Shown: positions 1,556 through 14,106 of the stretch, piece after piece
How positions within the stretch are numbered: position 1 is the stretch's first letter
Layout of the letters: each line of letters starts with the position of its first letter
IMG/VR virus record: IMGVR_UViG_2681813233_000009
Length of the DNA: 14,363 nt
Origin: a virus
Taxonomy: Duplodnaviria > Heunggongvirae > Uroviricota > Caudoviricetes
Direction: 5' to 3' (one strand)
Position numbers and translations under genes: made by a program
Notes under the pieces: model-generated
Seen by the model: the letters and a program-made list of their open reading frames with translations, nothing else
Told to the model about the DNA's origin: nothing
The model's database searches: none

Positions 1556-2578
1556 CTATTCGGAAGTGACTTGGCTTTGCTTTTTTATCGTTCTGGTTTT
1601 CAACATTTCAATCTGGCCAGCTTCGGTTAATGACCAGAAAGTATTCATGCTGCCATTGGTGGTTTTTAAATATTCAATTTTTATCAAACCATATGCCCTA
1701 AATTGCACTCCTATCGTTTTAAGGTCTTGAGAAGATACTTTTGCTGATGTGCCTCCCTTGCCTGCGACCTTTTGAGCGCTTTTGGCAATTGTGTATGATA
1801 CGCTTGATTCAGTATAATATTGAGTGAGATAGGGGGAGATTGAGTGAAAAATATCCTTCCATTTCATTTTCACGGACCAGTGTTTTGTTCCACCGGGATC
1901 ATACCCGATTCGAGGAAAGGTGGACTCACATCTAAATTCAAAATCATCATCAAAGTCAGCCAGATCCAGATCAAGTGTTTGACTAAGATTACTTGTGGCC
2001 TTGGCTAGTTCACTTTTTAACCATTCATTCTCTTTTTGTAAATCAACCATAGCCCGTAAATCAGTTTCAGAAGACGTTAGGTTGGCTCTTACCCATCCGA
2101 TTGCTGGATAAGTTTTCATCGTTTTACTCATACTTAAAGCAACCAACCCGGGTAAATCTTTGGCTGTTGCCCATGTTTTCCTGAGACGATTGGTTGAGGC
2201 CTTCTCTATAAATGCAGCTAGCTTCTCTCTGAGTTCAGAATCTTTTTCAGATTTGGCTAAAGGTAGATTTTCCGGATTCTCATGTACCAAAACAACGACG
2301 CGTAAACCTTTTGAAACTGCGTAATCGAATTCCTTTTCCGTGTAACTTAAACCATCTTCCGCGACAGAGCCATAACGACCACCAATGATCAGCAGATAAT
2401 AATCACAGTCATCAATTACTTTTTTTATGAACTCCCATTGGCCTTCATCGATTGCTGGGAACAACTCCATGCCTGCTGGAATGCAATCCATTTCCATCAG
2501 AGTTTGTATGACGTGTTTTCGTTCTTCTTCTAAATCCGTAAAAGTTGAACTTACGAAAACCTGGTAACGTTTATCCAT
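1556..2578 (-). CDS. Cargo protein, 340 aa, with N-terminal DUF4062-like motif ([16 protein letters not shown]); candidate defense or abortive-infection protein
   Basis: ATG at 2576-2578 (minus) with AAGGGA RBS; uninterrupted 340-codon ORF; visibly more AT-rich than neighbouring genes; N-terminal FVSSTF-DL-EER motif matches my recollection of the DUF4062 family; central coiled-coil-like segment ([28 protein letters not shown]). Domain assignment not verified by HMM. Confidence 0.8.
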
Positions 2579-2584
2579 TTTTAT

Positions 2585-2616
2585 CCCTTAAAAGAGGAAG
2601 GGGCATTAGCCCCTTC
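2585..2616 (-). terminator. Putative intrinsic terminator or attenuator between the small Cys-rich ORF and the cargo gene
   Basis: 8-bp GC-rich stem gaaggggc/gccccttc (2597-2604 with 2609-2616), loop atta; on the minus-strand RNA it is followed by CCUCUUUU, which overlaps the RBS of the downstream cargo gene. Confidence 0.4.
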
Positions 2617-2624
2617 ATTCAACA

Positions 2625-2891
2625 TTAACCAGCGTGACGGTAGGATTCACGCACACCATCACGATAACCATCAGCGAACGCTGCTTGAGGACTTTTGTGG
2701 CGAACGGTTCCCGCCTGGCTATCAGGTAAGGCGGCTAAGTCTACCCAAACCTGACCCGTGCGAGCCAAGCCAGCGCGGTAACCCTGATCGTAAGCGCAGC
2801 CGCAACATTTATGGCGACCTTCACCACCTTGATCGTGAGGTAAGCTGATGAAAAGAGTATTGTAACGGTGTGACTGTTTACAAATGGTCAT
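2625..2891 (-). CDS. Small Cys-rich hypothetical protein, 88 aa (MTICKQSHRYNTLFISLPHDQGGEGRHKCCGCAYDQGY...)
   Basis: Internal ATG at 2889-2891 (minus) preceded by a strong AAGGAG RBS at 6-nt spacing; the longer track ORF (to 3014) has no RBS. GC-richer than the adjacent cargo gene. No family recognised. Confidence 0.5.
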   Translation of the reverse strand: MTICKQSHRYNTLFISLPHDQGGEGRHKCCGCAYDQGYRAGLARTGQVWVDLAALPDSQAGTVRHKSPQAAFADGYRDGVRESYRHAG

Positions 2892-3571
2892 GCAATGCTC
2901 CTTATGAGCGTTCATTTTAAGGTTTACATGATCCTCTTTGCCTGGCACAATCAAGCCGTCAGAAATGAAGGCAAGGCTAAGATTCATACGAGTTTGGCGA
3001 CTCCTATTGGTCATGCTTTGTAAGCCGGGTTCGTGAAAATGAATCCGGTTTTTTTATGCCTAAAAATCAGGCATGGCACTACATGTGGGGGTGGTCAATC
3101 AATGGTGGCCCCACATAGACGATATTCTAGTGATGATTCTTTTCTGCACAAGGGTTGATTTTGACGTTAAATTGAGGTTGTGAAAGGGTAAAAATGCAAA
3201 ACCCTGCACAGCATAAGGCTTGGAAGACATGTCAATGATTAAGAAAAAAAAATCAAAATTTGATCGAGTGCTGATTTCTTCAACGGGAGGTCAGAATTGC
3301 GCGACATGATGTCGCGTAATCTTTATAAGAATAATGAATGGCATTAGTCGTTTTTGATGGTCTCTTGTAACATATAGTTAACATATAGATGTTCGTGAAG
3401 GGAGAAAGGCGCGAAAGGTAAATGTTATCTGGATAGTCTACCAATGCCTGTACCAGTACGAAAAGAGCGCTAATCATACCGAACTTAATCTCATAAAGGT
3501 TTTCACGAGAGCGAAGGACGTTAACGCTAGATTGCGAAACGAAACATTTCATTCTCTTCAATCTTTGGGTA

Positions 3572-3610
3572 ATAAAAAAGGCTGACCCGTTAAGGTCAGC
3601 CTTCTTAAAA
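3572..3610 (-). terminator. Rho-independent terminator ending the minus-strand capsid operon (bidirectional-looking)
   Basis: 8-bp stem ggctgacc/ggtcagcc (3580-3587 with 3594-3601), loop cgttaa; A-run 3572-3579 on plus (U-run after the stem on the minus RNA); ttctt follows on the plus strand. Confidence 0.6.
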
Positions 3611-3622
3611 TCAATGTGTTAC

Positions 3623-3811
3623 TTACTTCTTTTGACGCTGTTTAGCGATCATAACGTTAAGCGCGTATTCAAAACCGTGTTGCGATTCCAAACGGCTAAA
3701 CGTCACGTTACACAGGCCCAACTCTCTACACAGTGCTTTACGGTTTACGACCTCCGCCGCGCCAGATACATAGACTTGACCAGCGCCGGGGATATTGATT
3801 GAAACTTTCAT
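3623..3811 (-). CDS. Hypothetical small protein, 62 aa, last gene of the capsid operon
   Basis: ATG at 3809-3811 (minus) with GAGGTG upstream; co-directional with the capsid gene and followed by the terminator at 3572-3610. The overlapping plus-strand ORF 3614-3802 lacks this context. Confidence 0.45.
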   Translation of the reverse strand: MKVSINIPGAGQVYVSGAAEVVNRKALCRELGLCNVTFSRLESQHGFEYALNVMIAKQRQKK

Positions 3812-3903: not shown

Positions 3904-4923
3904 TTACTTCAGCTTGACGTTCAGCATGTAGTTCGGGCGCAGGTTCAGAGGAATGAAGCTCGCCTCTTGGTGAACGGTCACCATGCCGTAACGGTCAGTC
4001 ATTACTTTTTGGTAGTAAGGGCTGATCACACCTTTAGCGGAGATATCCTGATTACGTGAAGCCGGGCCGCGTACCAGTTTGAACGGGTTACGATCCGCTG
4101 CACTGAACTTTGGAACGAACAGGCCGGAACCTGCCGCGATTTCGTAGCGGTCATCGTCCGCCAGAATGAAAGTAATGTTGCCAATGCTGAAGGAGTCATA
4201 ACCCGCAGTGTTAACCGGGATCAGAGCGCCTTTTGCAGCCTCCGCCACTTTGTTGGTGATCAGGCTGGTTACTTCTGGGTGGCTCGCCAGAACGTCATAC
4301 AGATCCGGGGAGCAGAAGCAATAGAAGCGGTCCAGATAGGAGCGGCTCGCGCCGTACTCTTTAACCAACATGCGGCGAATCTTCGCAAGCTGTGCATAGA
4401 CGTTAGCGCCTGCTGAACCGTCGAGGTCGAAACTCAGCGGAGCAGTACCAAACACAGCGTTAAAATCTACGTCGCCGTCATCCGTTTTAGCCGCTTTCGC
4501 TTCCTGCTTGAACAGGGCGCGGGCCAGTGTGCTTTCAACTGTTTCCAGATGATAGTTACGCATACGGATAGCTTTATCAGCAATAACAGATGTGATCGCC
4601 TGAGCCTGATCCGGGTTAGCCGGGCTTACCAGGCCTTGCCAGTCAGCGGTTTTTACATCCGCCTCAGTGGCATAGTGTGGGATCTCCTGGTTACGCAGGA
4701 TGGTTTTATCCATCATGATCGCGTTAACTTCGGTGCCATAGCGGGCAACCTGCTCCAGTTCACTAACCTGAGTTTCCACAATATCCACAATCTGGGCGTT
4801 TGGAGTGGTTGAGTTAACATCGGAGAAGATACCCAGATCAGAGATCAGGTAATTACCTGCTGGTTGATCTTTGATCGCCGCTACAGTGTCCAGCTTTTCA
4901 AACTGTTTAAAATCAATAGCCAT
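3904..4923 (-). CDS. Putative phage major capsid protein, 339 aa (family not verified)
   Basis: ATG at 4921-4923 (minus), AGGAA RBS; starts 12 bp after the stop of the upstream small gene (small-gene/capsid-gene arrangement as in lambda D-E); A/D/S/T-rich composition typical of virion proteins. Capsid assignment is by context and gestalt, not by alignment. Confidence 0.6.
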   Translation of the reverse strand: MAIDFKQFEKLDTVAAIKDQPAGNYLISDLGIFSDVNSTTPNAQIVDIVETQVSELEQVARYGTEVNAIMMDKTILRNQEIPHYATEADVKTADWQGLVSPANPDQAQAITSVIADKAIRMRNYHLETVESTLARALFKQEAKAAKTDDGDVDFNAVFGTAPLSFDLDGSAGANVYAQLAKIRRMLVKEYGASRSYLDRFYCFCSPDLYDVLASHPEVTSLITNKVAEAAKGALIPVNTAGYDSFSIGNITFILADDDRYEIAAGSGLFVPKFSAADRNPFKLVRGPASRNQDISAKGVISPYYQKVMTDRYGMVTVHQEASFIPLNLRPNYMLNVKLK

Positions 4924-4935
4924 TGTGTGATTTCC

Positions 4936-5307
4936 TTATGCTTTGAAGTAATCGGCGTTGATAGCCAGGCGAATATCACCGGAGGCTGTCAGCGCTTCCA
5001 GTGCGGCTTTTTTGCTCGCGGCGTCTTTAGCACGTAGGGCAAAATCGGTAATCACAACATGGCGATCCACGATAACCAGCGTTTTAGTCTTGCCATCGGC
5101 GGACATATTGGAAAGGTTAATGATCGGCTTGCCAGCTTCAGCGGCGGCGGAGTCGAACAGGGCAAAAGTTTTGCTGTCCAGAATATCGCCACAGTAGACG
5201 TCAGCCGGGAGGCTTGGGGCGGTTACTTCGGTGCGGTCAAACAGGCTGGAGGCGTAGTTGACGATTACGTCACCTTGCGTTACCGGGTAGCGCTCGGAAG
5301 TTTTCAT
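4936..5307 (-). CDS. Putative head decoration or capsid-associated protein, 123 aa
   Basis: ATG at 5305-5307 (minus) with AAGGAAAA RBS; the track ORF extends to 5451 but lacks an RBS there; tightly coupled (12 bp) to the downstream capsid gene. Confidence 0.5.
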   Translation of the reverse strand: MKTSERYPVTQGDVIVNYASSLFDRTEVTAPSLPADVYCGDILDSKTFALFDSAAAEAGKPIINLSNMSADGKTKTLVIVDRHVVITDFALRAKDAASKKAALEALTASGDIRLAINADYFKA

Positions 5308-5437
5308 AAAGGTTTTCCTTATGGAGGGTTTTAGACGTGGAGAGAGTCCACAGGATGATCCGGCGTTGCACCGAATATAAGGACCGCCACAGAGGACAAT
5401 CCGAATTGTTGGAAGATGGGAGGCCGTGGATTGAATA

Positions 5438-5467
5438 GAAGAGGGCGGCATCCGCGCCGCCCTTTCT
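5438..5467 (-). terminator. GC hairpin with flanking U-rich tracts upstream of the capsid operon (possible leader terminator)
   Basis: 7-bp stem gggcggc/gccgccc (5443-5449 with 5456-5462), loop atccgc; tttct follows on plus, and tcttctatt follows on the minus RNA; lies about 135 bp upstream of the decoration-gene start. Confidence 0.4.
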
Positions 5468-6551
5468 AATCTGGCTCTCTCTCACCCTCGCGGGTGGGGA
5501 AGGATATTTATCCTTTTGTGTGGATACTTGCCGCCCCTGGTGGCGTCACGTCGAATAGCACCAACCTTTTGGCAAATACCCACAAAAAAGAACCCGGCTG
5601 GAGGAACCGGGGTGGACAATGTAACTTACTGTATGATCACTTGTTTTCCTGTGTAGCCTCAGAGCCTTACATGATTTGCTTTCATGGTTCAGCAAAGAAG
5701 CCACAGAGGAAAACGGGCACCCTGAACGCGCCCGGAAACCATCGACGCAAATCAATAGTTTATCGTTGAGACCAGGTAACCAGCCCGGCCCAACTGTGAC
5801 CCCGTGGAGGGTCGATACAATTGAAGGAGATTCGCTTGTATTCTGAAGAGCCGCAGTTAGCGACGCTTTAGAATAGGGCCTGTGGCGCAAGCACTATGAT
5901 TAGAGGCGTTTTGAATCGTAGGAGTGAAACAATCGGCGGAACTTGAGGAGAGGACCGCACACAAAGCATTCTGGCAAGTGGAGTTGAAAGAACACTTTGG
6001 GTGAGGGCCGGGGCGGGGGAGAAGCCGCCCGGCTCACTCAGTACAGATCCTAATTGCACACGTTGCGACTCTGTACAGGTGGGGGGCGTGACAAGCTGCA
6101 AAACGGTAATTTCGATATCCTCGCCACACCCCACACCATGTATATTAGTTTAACACGAATGATTATCATTTGCAATAAAAATTAATTGCATTGTGTTGAG
6201 TCTTATGATATTGGCGGCCACACACGTGACGGATCAGATCTGCATTAATTTTTATTAGTGAGTGGTCTGACTCAGGGAGGGCTATGTGTCCCAAAAGACA
6301 CACGAAGTAATAATAGATATATAAGACCTCGCTACGCTCGCCCTCCGGGTCCGTCTTATTGATCTTATATAATAACTTCATTCAATAACTAATTGTTTTC
6401 ACAATTAATCATTTCATTCGTTATTATATGATCTTAAAACCTTCTCGCCCTTTGGGCTTACCAGGTTTTAGGCCGGGGCCTATTTCCCCACAATGTAGAG
6501 TCTCGCCTGTGTGGCTCATCTCCCGGGGGGCATTTTGAAACAAGGGTGTAC

Positions 6552-6612
6552 TGACAAAATGTCACAACGTGTTATGACAGATTGGCACAACGTGTTATGA
6601 CAAAATGTCACA
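6552..6612. promoter_or_regulatory. Cluster of dyad-symmetric repeats (operator- or iteron-like)
   Basis: 17-mer cacaacgtgttatgaca occurs twice (6563-6579 and 6586-6602), 6 bp apart; 15-mer tgacaaaatgtcaca occurs twice (6552-6566 and 6598-6612); each unit is itself a near-palindrome (TGACA-aaa-TGTCA; TGTCAcAACG/tGTTaTGACA). Confidence 0.5.
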
Positions 6613-12060: not shown

Positions 12061-12627
12061 TCATAACAGATCCGCTATTGAATATTTATCACTAAAATCA
12101 TCTACTTTGCGTTGTGTGGCCCCAATGTAATGAAGCGTACTGGATAACGATTTGTGCCCTAATGCTTTACTAATTACAGCTATATCCTCCCCATTGTCAT
12201 AACCAATCGTTGGTTTACTCTTCCTCATGCTGTGGGTCGAAAGATTCAGCCCCAGCTTTTCCCCGGCGTAGCTAATTTCCTCATGCAATTTGGAGCGGCT
12301 CACAGGTTTTCCCTTGCTCCTGTGGCTGTCCAACTGTAAGAGGTACACATTATCAGGGTTAGCCTCTCTCCGGGCCGCTATGATGCGTTTAGCGGTATCG
12401 GTAAGCCTCACCCGGACAGATTCACCCGTTTTCTGTTGGGACAGGACAAGGTGATCGCCTTTGATGTCGGCATAACGGATAGAGCGCAGATCCGACACCC
12501 TCAGCATTAATTCATAACCCAATAACCAGGCGTCACGGTACAGCGTCAGCCCCTTGCCCTGTTTGAGTAGCTCAACTGCTACCGCTTTCACTTCCTGAAC
12601 TGATTTACAGCCCTCTACGAAATTCAT
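12061..12627 (-). CDS. Small tyrosine recombinase, catalytic domain only (FimB/FimE-sized), 188 aa
   Basis: ATG at 12625-12627 (minus) with GGAGAG RBS; the track ORF begins at an upstream TTG without an RBS; motifs LRVSDLRSIRYADI (Arg), HSMRKS (His-x-x-Arg), LGHKSLSSTLHY (His and Tyr). Confidence 0.8.
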   Translation of the reverse strand: MNFVEGCKSVQEVKAVAVELLKQGKGLTLYRDAWLLGYELMLRVSDLRSIRYADIKGDHLVLSQQKTGESVRVRLTDTAKRIIAARREANPDNVYLLQLDSHRSKGKPVSRSKLHEEISYAGEKLGLNLSTHSMRKSKPTIGYDNGEDIAVISKALGHKSLSSTLHYIGATQRKVDDFSDKYSIADLL

Positions 12628-13020
12628 TCTGTACTCTCCAGAACCTAACTGTGATAAATTTTTGATCAAAAACAAGCACTTGTAAACGACAAAAATTATT
12701 AATTTTAAGTTGTGTCTTTTTAGTGAATTAAATCGGGTTTAATCGCGTTTAATGGCAGAGTAATGACCCGGCAGGGGAGGTAATGGGCTGTTTATGTGGG
12801 TAAAAGATGGTTGCTTAATGTACTATTACCACAAGACGGGTAAGGTGATTTGACTCCCTCAGTTCCTTTAAGCTACTGTATTTATGGGAAATTAATTATT
12901 GTTTCTTTATGGTGTTGCCTGGCAAATTTTCAGTTTACCCTCAAGAAAAATCCCCATCTTTTTTATTCTCCACATGAGAATAAATTTTGTTTGCAAATAT
13001 CACTCATTCTCAACTCCAGT

Positions 13021-13832: not shown

Positions 13833-13981
13833 GTGCCTGCCATTTATCTGTGGGTCACAACGTGAGACACAAACTGGGACACAGAGGATTTTTTAGGGTT
13901 GAGTCTTTGGCTTCCCGCTGGCATGATCCAGAACAGGGATTAACGGGACGTTAATCGCAAGCTTTTGATTTTGTTTTATTT

Positions 13982-14106
13982 GACTCGGGGTGCCCTTCTG
14001 CGTGAAGGCTGAGAAATACCCGTATCACCTGATCTGGATAATGCCAGCGTAGGGAAGTCACGGACCACCAGGTCATTGCTTCTTCACGTTATGGCAGGAG
14101 CAAACT
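13982..14106 (+). promoter_or_regulatory. TPP (THI-box) riboswitch of thiM: aptamer plus expression platform
   Basis: Sequence gactcggggtgcccttctgcgtgaaggctgagaaatacccgtatcacctgatctggataatgccagcgtagggaag matches the E. coli thiM TPP aptamer as I recall it (including the conserved CUGAGA element); it runs into the thiM RBS (aggag at 14096-14100). Confidence 0.9.
14033..14052. repeat. attR-side copy of att core, lying inside the TPP aptamer
   Basis: Identical to positions 1-20. Confidence 0.7.

Follow-up and report, generated by a model that had tools for sequence, protein, structure and literature searches.

The stretch of DNA considered here (hereafter the window) is the 14,363-nucleotide (nt) Caudoviricetes record IMGVR_UViG_2681813233_000009 of IMG/VR. 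Its minus strand carries at 2625-2891 a small open reading frame (ORF) of 88 amino acids (aa), which is the core of an uncharacterised and widespread cassette whose terminator hairpin doubles as the entry point of a cargo gene. In the reading favoured here, to which a probability of roughly 0.6 is given, the cassette is an autonomous unit gated by an antisense small RNA (sRNA), with a leaky terminator feeding the cargo. The original prediction had drawn attention to positions 2585-2891, and all the elements that it flagged lie on the minus strand; the predicted antisense sRNA is found upstream of the small ORF, outside that interval. The features needed to follow the argument are these:

2625-2891, minus strand: small ORF of 88 aa (MTICKQSH...HKCCGC...SYRHAG), ATG 2891-2889, TAA 2627-2625, a member of the phrog_3941 family.
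2898-2903, minus strand: Shine-Dalgarno sequence AAGGAG, visible in the sequence itself and separated by 6 nt from the ATG of the small ORF.
2588-2616, minus strand: intrinsic-terminator-like hairpin of the small ORF including its tail (stem 2616-2609 / 2604-2597), from a consensus scan, folding and homologues.
3124-3151, minus strand: candidate promoter of the small-ORF messenger RNA (mRNA), with an inferred -35 TTGTGC (3151-3146), a 16-nt spacer and a -10 TAGAAT (3129-3124).
2892-3116, minus strand: structured 5' leader of about 225 nt of the small-ORF mRNA, its start being predicted.
2923-2951, plus strand: putative promoter of the antisense sRNA, with -35 TTTACA (2923-2928), a 17-nt spacer and a TG-extended -10 CACAAT (2946-2951), from a scan and conservation.
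2958-3055, plus strand: predicted cis-antisense sRNA of about 98 nt (stem-loop 1, GGUCAUGCUU, terminator hairpin, U7), from folding and covariation.
2582-3284, minus strand: conserved mobile cassette made of promoter, leader with antisense sRNA, ORF and hairpin, delimited by recurring end points.
1556-2589, minus strand: cargo, a DUF4062 gene (TIR-like NADase of the Swarozyc/Evangelion type) including its Shine-Dalgarno AAGGGA, from PF13271 and phrog_15411.

The small ORF is a genuine gene under strong purifying selection, because its product matches phrog_3941 (unknown function, E 2.9e-29), because a profile search of 1.84 billion representatives returned 496 clusters at E ≤ 0.001, and because the comparison with its closest relative, L003 (L numbers denote the loci compared), counts 18 synonymous and 0 non-synonymous differences. 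Against L140 the ratio of non-synonymous to synonymous substitution rates (dN/dS) is 0.04. The 86 close homologues, 84-91 aa long, come from Enterobacterales, Vibrio, Shewanella, Pseudoalteromonas, Sulfurospirillum and others, and are annotated without exception as "hypothetical". The ORF and its ribosome-binding site are thus as originally described, and the conservation proposed as a check was found. An in-frame form of 129 aa starting at ATG 3014 was rejected, the homologues being 84-91 aa and aligning from M1 of the 88-aa form; the N-terminal extensions proposed by gene finders (98-126 aa) vary among homologues and show no conservation.

The product is a soluble, Cys/His-rich protein devoid of hydrophobic helices. 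Residues C4, H8, H27, C29 and C32 are invariant in the homologues together with the motif SQAG(T)VRH (SQAGxVRH), and the protein is an internal duplication of the unit LPxSQxGxxRHKxxxxA(Y/F)xxGYxxG, with halves that have diverged (LPhDQGGeGRHKCCGCAYdqGYraG and LPDSQAGTVRHKSPQAAFadGYrdG). A Cys/His zinc site is probable; in the AlphaFold2 model (predicted local distance difference test 89, predicted template modelling score 0.83) the CxxC motif starts a helix. The length of the ORF, its dN/dS and the confident fold argue against the leader function that had been listed among the options for this gene. Scans of the product against Pfam, NCBIfam and PADLOC gave no match, a fold search with the model matched no known fold, and literature searches with motif strings and accessions of the family turned up nothing. 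Membership of the ribosome modulation factor family (RMF, PF04957) was rejected, the best E-value being 0.0011 and the window protein scoring 15 bits against a cut-off of 27.9. The RMF/CrpP-like lead, suggested by the GYxAG motif, fell likewise, the Pfam matches being sub-threshold and covering 12 residues only: the similarity is limited to a 12-residue A(Y/H)xxGYxAG motif seen in 12 of 33 members, and comparison of the two families gave an hhalign probability of 2.6% and no fold match.

Fusions of the module occur in other genomes; its partners are DndB-like and WYL proteins and the restriction-type nucleases HNH, PLD and NOV_C (PD-(D/E)xK), the NOV_C fusions carrying two tandem half-repeats of the zinc module. 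Since the partners are nucleases and DNA-binding regulators, a nucleic-acid-associated role is suggested, and the small zinc module probably binds nucleic acid. The fusions point to a type of nucleic-acid recognition relevant to phage defence, and the family, with its 496 clusters and no Pfam entry, occupies the slots where phages and satellites keep defence genes.

The gene moves as part of a larger segment. The end points of the cassette recur in the L003 viral contig, in Enterobacter chromosomes (L083-L086), in Klebsiella islands (L087-L092) and in E. coli (L001), with an identity to the window of 90-92% in L003 and L083-L086 and of 73% in L087-L092, and the roughly 390 nt upstream of the small ORF are conserved as well as the ORF or better. 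Boundaries common to unrelated contexts support the view of the cassette as an autonomous mobile unit. In the E. coli and Klebsiella islands a short gene of the integrase family precedes it on its own strand, and in the window the cassette and its cargo sit directly beside the integrase (108-1463). Elsewhere it follows cI in a P22-like phage (the rex/sieB slot), separates Q from the lysis genes in a Providencia phage, or, in P2-like phages, occupies the gpA-gpQ hotspot, where a ParM partition system often precedes it. Of 5426 complete E. coli genomes, 166 carry the P2-like cassette, which often goes unannotated. On plasmids the gene is rare (12 of 72,556), which weakens plasmid post-segregational killing as its role.

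The gpA-gpQ locus of P2-like phages belongs to the accessory and defence hotspots described for these phages and for P4-like satellites (Rousset et al. 2022, PMC9122126). Like the phage morons and the genes of the P2/P4 hotspots described there, the cassette is self-contained, present or absent among relatives and placed beside variable defence genes; as is typical of morons, it is an autonomous unit, with predicted promoters of its own, in varied backgrounds (P2 gpA-gpQ, after cI, between Q and lysis genes, next to int). Unlike them, it appears to bring its own antisense sRNA and recurs as a conserved first gene ahead of variable cargo.

One chromosomal copy illustrates how the parts of the cassette may decay. 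In L083-L086 (Enterobacter asburiae chromosome) it is inserted between an ABC transporter gene and a LysM/Peptidase_M23 gene, near lysS/prfB, and is both decaying and fixed across many assemblies (75 contigs). A frameshift affects the last 12 codons of the small ORF and the DUF4062 gene is reduced to a 55-nt relic, while sRNA and promoter are intact (96-100% identity). The RNA part of the unit seems here to outlive the protein part.

The control region upstream of the small ORF has a double organisation. On the minus strand, the mRNA would start near 3116, at a 5' hairpin that covaries, and the -10 of the candidate promoter is kept as TAnAAT in relatives. This hairpin (3116-3083, AUGUGGGG...CCCCACAU) becomes ATGTAGGG..CCCTACAT in L003 and ATGTAGTAG..CTACAT in L087/L141, and is followed by a second one at 3074-3056. 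Between about -67 and -164, counted from the ATG, the leader is perfectly complementary to the predicted antisense sRNA.

On the plus strand, a previously undescribed gene for an antisense sRNA of about 98 nt is predicted within this leader. The hexamers of its promoter are invariant in relatives while the spacer varies, and the promoter motif is retained in 38 of 40 metagenome loci. About 70 nt past the promoter lies a terminator (CCGG 3025-3028 ... CCGG 3045-3048, U7 at 3049-3055) folding at -17.9 kcal/mol (z = -4.7); the complete sRNA is predicted to fold at -34.3 kcal/mol (z = -4.0), with an invariant single-stranded GGUCAUGCUU between its two hairpins. RNAalifold, applied to an alignment of 11 sequences, gave 28 pairs; they build both stem-loop 1 and the terminator hairpin, and 7 of the 28 carry compensatory substitutions. 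Of the alignment cells, 94.5% are paired, and 16 are double-changed versus 7.5±2.5 in shuffled alignments (0/500 reaching that number) and at most 5 in slid controls. The signal is strand-specific, with 54 G-U cells and 94.5% pairing for the plus strand versus 78.2% for the minus strand. Moreover, no other segment of the cassette is as well conserved as the sRNA region (94-97% identity versus 77-96% for the small ORF); between the window and L001, identity is 94% over 2958-3058, 100% over 2923-2957 and 77% in the small ORF.

An Rfam search of the sRNA region found no family near its gathering score. A coding role of the antisense transcript was rejected: an indel of 1 nt among close relatives shifts the frame of its 23-codon ORF (ATG 2965), which would also be essentially leaderless. 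A plus-strand ORF of 42 aa (2895-3023) was set aside too, as it begins upstream of the predicted start of sRNA transcription, and a 16-nt inverted repeat (1863-1878 / 3028-3043) was taken as chance, both arms being on one transcript.

The antisense arrangement extends well beyond the close relatives of the window. A comparison of 53 distinct upstream regions, drawn from 80 viral-contig loci, found an antisense-strand TTTACA 28-41 nt from the start codon in about 45 of them, across subfamilies, with -10-like hexamers after a 17-nt spacer (TAAAAT, TACAAT, TAGACT, TAATCT, TACGAT, TAGAAT). In a strict scan, an antisense hairpin with a T-rich tail was present 99-161 nt upstream in 34 of 57 regions; sense-strand hairpins with a T tail were found in only 9 of the 57, mostly much further upstream, and are probably the terminators of the preceding genes. 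The P2-like phage 520873 keeps the same geometry in a different sequence, with a sense TTGACA-16-TAAGAT about 205 nt before the start codon, an antisense TTTACA-17-TAAAAT and a terminator stem of 12 bp. For the second-subfamily alignment (A5), in which MAFFT misaligned the hypervariable stems, per-sequence hairpins were used instead of RNAalifold. A pattern match at L145 in viral contigs was judged a chance match. In L045-L068 and relatives, GATC palindromes (CTTGAGAT / CGAGATCTCAAG) occupy the antisense spacer and the start of the sRNA, 30-80 nt before the start codon; in these several subfamilies they could be Dam-methylation-sensitive or operator sites.

At the other end of the cassette, 8 nt past the TAA, the hairpin 2616-2597 (GAAGGGGC-UAAU-GCCCCUUC) forms a perfect stem of 8 bp, 6 of them G-C, reaches a folding energy of -16 kcal/mol (z = -3.2, with none of 200 shuffles as good) and is labelled terminator-like by the consensus scan, so that the GC hairpin of the original prediction is borne out. 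Its U tract was said to overlap the Shine-Dalgarno of the cargo gene; a U tract is present, although interrupted, and it abuts that site rather than overlapping it. The tail, CUCUUUUAA, has 5 U among its first 7 positions, with breaks at positions 1 and 3, and the order on the minus strand is CUCUUUU (2596-2590), the Shine-Dalgarno AAGGGA (2589-2584), UAAAA and the DUF4062 ATG at 2578, which leaves only 18 nt between hairpin and cargo start codon.

We read this hairpin as the small ORF's own terminator, a family-wide element rather than a feature of the cargo junction, because 69 of the 82 distinct 3' flanks of homologues have a GC-rich hairpin no more than about 55 nt past the stop codon, usually followed by a T run, with stem sequences that differ and whatever gene lies downstream. 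At least 8 unrelated stems occur (GAAGGGGC, AAGCGCC, AACCCGGCC, AAGGCUACC, AAAGCCCC, AGCCCCCG, GAUCACGAGGAGG and others), and most family members have a canonical U run and no same-strand gene behind it. Loci closely related to the window all keep the same stem, around loops that vary freely (UAAU, UUAU, GCAC, AUAA, UUCCU, UUCAU). Loci with a same-strand ORF close behind lack the hairpin more often than the others (9 of 28 versus 4 of 54, Fisher p = 0.006), as in L006, where the TGA of the small ORF overlaps the ATG of a PD-T7-4 gene.

The sequence C-U-(C/A)-U-U succeeds the 8-bp stem in the five intact type 1 DUF4062 junctions (defined below) that have this hairpin, whereas three DUF4062-less relatives (L003, L083, L162) have a CUUUUU tail and the other three relics CUUUCC or CUUUUC; in L003 the stem is of 12 bp and reaches -23.6 kcal/mol versus the -16 kcal/mol of the window. 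This difference between DUF4062 junctions and DUF4062-less relatives is suggestive, the numbers being small.

The cargo protein of the window has 340 aa, with PF13271 at residues 6-87 (E 1.7e-30) and a match to phrog_15411 (E 1e-106); the conserved YTExE motif is present. No minus-strand sigma-70-like promoter with a match of at least 9/12 was found for this gene between 2579 and 3120. The island lineage of the window comprises about 38 loci that share its sRNA module and its integrase of 451-460 aa, and the commonest layout among them is [module][small ORF][DUF4062][<-int]. The small ORF is followed on the same strand by DUF4062 in about 15 of these loci, and 5-6 more keep a relic of about 55 nt of the DUF4062 5' end after the hairpin. 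Type 1 genes, 85-100% identical to that of the window, are found in the window, L140, L155, L156, L167 and L185, and the ORF-DUF4062 junction is conserved in L140, L155, L156 and L167. Type 2 genes (nine loci) are about 40% identical to the window gene over residues 1-191 and match PF13271 with E 1.4e-31; at these loci the hairpin has no U tract and DUF4062 has a plausible promoter of its own. Elsewhere the small ORF stands alone or precedes other same-strand cargo, including PD-T7-4, a GmrSD-like gene, membrane proteins and others.

Since no promoter was detected for the cargo and the U tract of the hairpin is imperfect, the simplest reading is that DUF4062 is coupled to the cassette in the window through a leaky terminator, which we consider likely. 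The coupling or attenuation proposed originally is retained in this form, on the additional ground of the recurrence within the island lineage; an attenuator in the strict sense is disfavoured, as no conserved alternative antiterminator was found at the hairpin. The DUF4062 gene probably depends on the upstream cassette for its expression, which matters when such genes are cloned "with native promoter".

These elements can be assembled into a pathway. The small ORF would be the coding core of an autonomous accessory cassette of the moron type, about 700 bp long, that settles in variable, defence-rich slots of temperate phages and islands. A sigma-70 promoter at about 3151-3124 would produce an mRNA composed of the structured leader, the 88-aa ORF and the GC hairpin at its end, while the antisense sRNA, from its own promoter to its own Rho-independent terminator, would pair perfectly with the leader and most likely limit expression of the small ORF, either because the duplex triggers decay or through transcriptional interference. 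Because the DUF4062 gene lies directly behind a weak terminator (8-bp stem, interrupted U tract) and no promoter of its own was detected, it would be expressed at a low level by read-through, which would place it under antisense control too. What the sequence comparisons show is a real and conserved ORF, a hairpin found throughout its family, an antisense promoter and terminator that are conserved and covary, and the gene neighbourhoods; the transcription starts, the cargo read-through, the repression by the sRNA, and the binding of zinc and nucleic acid are all inferred. If the antisense sRNA is real, it would represent a novel family of sRNAs and an uncommon example of defence cargo gated at its head by RNA.

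Several observations weigh against this pathway. The sRNA and all other transcript starts and ends are predictions from sequence, and the sense promoter is weak by consensus, with an 8/12 match. The number of T residues in the U tract is the same with and without same-strand cargo (4.3 versus 4.3, p = 0.45), and therefore a tuning of the terminator for read-through is not demonstrated. Since about 8 of the 53 distinct upstream regions have no antisense element, the latter is not obligatory; the element-free loci are those where the small ORF forms part of some other operon, ahead of PD-T7-4, within a Mu-like late region or immediately behind cI in the P22-like phage. The control region is not specific to the ORF either, because the same promoter/leader/sRNA module drives a different gene of 304 aa in L141 of E. 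coli and in 10 of 40 metagenome loci. Finally, the recurrent pairing of the ORF with two DUF4062 lineages about 40% identical could reflect partnership rather than hitch-hiking.

The alternative head gene (MLIQKKRIRNIDNY...) lies at 2040-2954 on the minus strand of L141 and was also located in L151, L154, L160, L171, L174, L176, L178, L180 and L181; its 304-aa product has no Pfam or PADLOC match.

A more elaborate version of the antisense-gated cassette, which we put forward only tentatively, would make it a previously unrecognised, portable gate for the defence cargo of mobile elements: the sRNA would restrain a leader mRNA whose first product is a nucleic-acid-binding sensor or regulator, or a conditional toxin, controlling the downstream effector or acting with it, and the unit would be switched on when infection removes the sRNA or abolishes termination. 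The effectors behind such a gate would be, just as tentatively, the DUF4062 NADase, PD-T7-4, the GmrSD-like nuclease and the membrane proteins. The arrangement recalls BrxR/CapW, WYL-domain regulators of defence islands that lie upstream of variable defence genes. As with these regulators, a conserved small gene heads diverse same-strand defence cargo, and the module is itself fused to WYL and DndB-like proteins; unlike them, the small ORF product has neither a helix-turn-helix nor a WYL domain.

The pairing with DUF4062 may alternatively denote a two-gene defence system, in which the zinc protein would be a dedicated regulator, an inhibitor (anti-autoimmunity factor) or a co-sensor of the NADase and the hairpin would set the stoichiometry. 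This is doubtful, even though the lineage counts given above, including the 5' relics, speak in its favour, as do the presence of two divergent DUF4062 lineages behind a small ORF that is about 95% identical, the comparable divergence of both genes in type 1 loci and the lack of a promoter for the cargo. Outside the island lineage the association vanishes: DUF4062 was found in 0 of the 80 viral-contig loci encoding a small ORF homologue, and the small ORF within 3 kb in 0 of 45 viral-contig loci of DUF4062 homologues. The ORF is commonly alone in P2-like prophages and otherwise accompanies unrelated cargo, and type 2 loci have a plausible DUF4062 promoter. Furthermore, two preprints present Swarozyc and Evangelion as single-gene NADase defences, triggered by portal or replication, that work alone in E. 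coli (bioRxiv 10.64898/2026.05.01.722283 and 10.64898/2026.06.25.731849), and DUF4062 proteins from K. pneumoniae and Enterobacteriaceae ("EcDUF4062" in the preprint) are reported to defend E. coli when expressed alone. The cargo gene resembles these systems in its N-terminal DUF4062 followed by an auxiliary region of about 250 aa, and in its location on a mobile element beside an integrase; the likeness concerns the neighbouring cargo gene and not the small ORF, and no upstream small gene or antisense RNA was found in the passages of the preprints consulted or by a term search of the Swarozyc preprint. The original idea of a DUF4062-specific partner is accordingly not upheld; a functional ORF-DUF4062 partnership is possible, and is not required by the data.

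It is equally doubtful that the cassette is a type I toxin-antitoxin module, serving addiction or abortive infection, with the 88-aa protein as toxin and the antisense sRNA as antitoxin. The general layout would suit such a module, with a small protein gene, a long structured leader, a cis-antisense sRNA that looks constitutive and exceeds the gene in conservation, and a terminator of its own. In addition, the cassette adjoins the ParM partition system in about 30 P2-like prophage loci, an adjacency that can be likened to plasmid R1, which combines parA (partition) with parB (hok/sok). Like symE/symR and ralR/ralA, whose toxins are not membrane proteins, and like hok/sok, it unites a small gene, a structured leader, a putative cis-antisense RNA in the range of about 70-100 nt with a strong conserved promoter and an intrinsic terminator in a mobile unit, and the predicted sRNA overlaps the mRNA of the gene, as expected of type I loci. 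Unlike in those loci, the sRNA would pair 67-164 nt upstream of the start codon and not over the ribosome-binding site, and no sequence or Rfam similarity to them was found. The protein is an 88-aa putative zinc module, soluble and, by inference, zinc-binding, unlike the short hydrophobic toxins of type I systems, typically under 60 aa. A toxin gene would never be expected without its antitoxin, whereas homologues are tolerated where both antisense promoter and terminator are missing (translational coupling to PD-T7-4, the Mu-like late region, directly after cI), and the homologue after cI would be expressed in lysogens. The rarity of the gene on plasmids and the unrelated 304-aa gene driven by the same sRNA/leader module count against this view as well.

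The antisense-gated cassette also resembles P22 sar/ant and lambda OOP/cII, where a short antisense RNA likewise lies within the 5' region of a small phage gene and likely limits its expression in lysogens; gene and RNA differ from those of the cassette. A weak Rfam match to sar (E 0.03) reaches no further than the terminator hairpin of the P2-like cassette and scores far under the gathering threshold. That the hairpin is instead an intercistronic stem for mRNA stabilisation or processing in an obligatory bicistronic operon, and no terminator, is improbable and the weakest of the options: the interruption of the U tract (CUCUUUU), the equivalent hairpins without any U tract in type 2 and several other cargo loci, and a predicted fold that pairs the end of the small ORF with DUF4062 codons 4-7 around the hairpin would fit it, whereas most family members have a canonical U run with no same-strand gene after it, and in the closest relatives without DUF4062 a longer stem is followed by U5.

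As regards the element that hosts the cassette, a perfect 20-bp direct repeat (TCTGGATAATGCCAGCGTAG; 1-20 and 14033-14052) bounds about 14 kb, and its right copy is located inside a thiamine pyrophosphate riboswitch (13976-14072, plus strand; 74.8 bits, E 1.5e-13). The window is an integrative island that appears to enter a thi leader and to regenerate it. In L006 the backbone of the window recurs at 67-77% identity; there the cassette is inverted and its cargo is PD-T7-4. A second integrase-family ORF (204 aa, 12061-12675, minus strand) stands at the far end of the island; its homologue lies about 450 nt upstream of the cassette and on the same strand in L001, L005, L087-L092 and L141, and the distance of about 9 kb in the window suggests a rearrangement or a nested insertion.

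The island encodes a Phage_cap_E-type major capsid protein (3904-5451, minus strand; E 1.3e-16) and, with a weak match, a lambda-gpD-like decoration protein (E 5e-4). No portal or terminase was seen in the window, and this gene set is unusual for a small integrative element (satellite-like). Within the unannotated segment 3290-3900 between cassette and capsid gene, a weak Rfam match to HrrF (3574-3661, minus strand; 29.9 bits versus a gathering score of 77, E 0.07) is probably due to chance. Between divergent gene blocks at 6546-6612, three tandem 21-nt repeats spaced by 23 nt (GTGTACTGACAAAATGTCACA and variants) form imperfect palindromes that look like operator or iteron sites.

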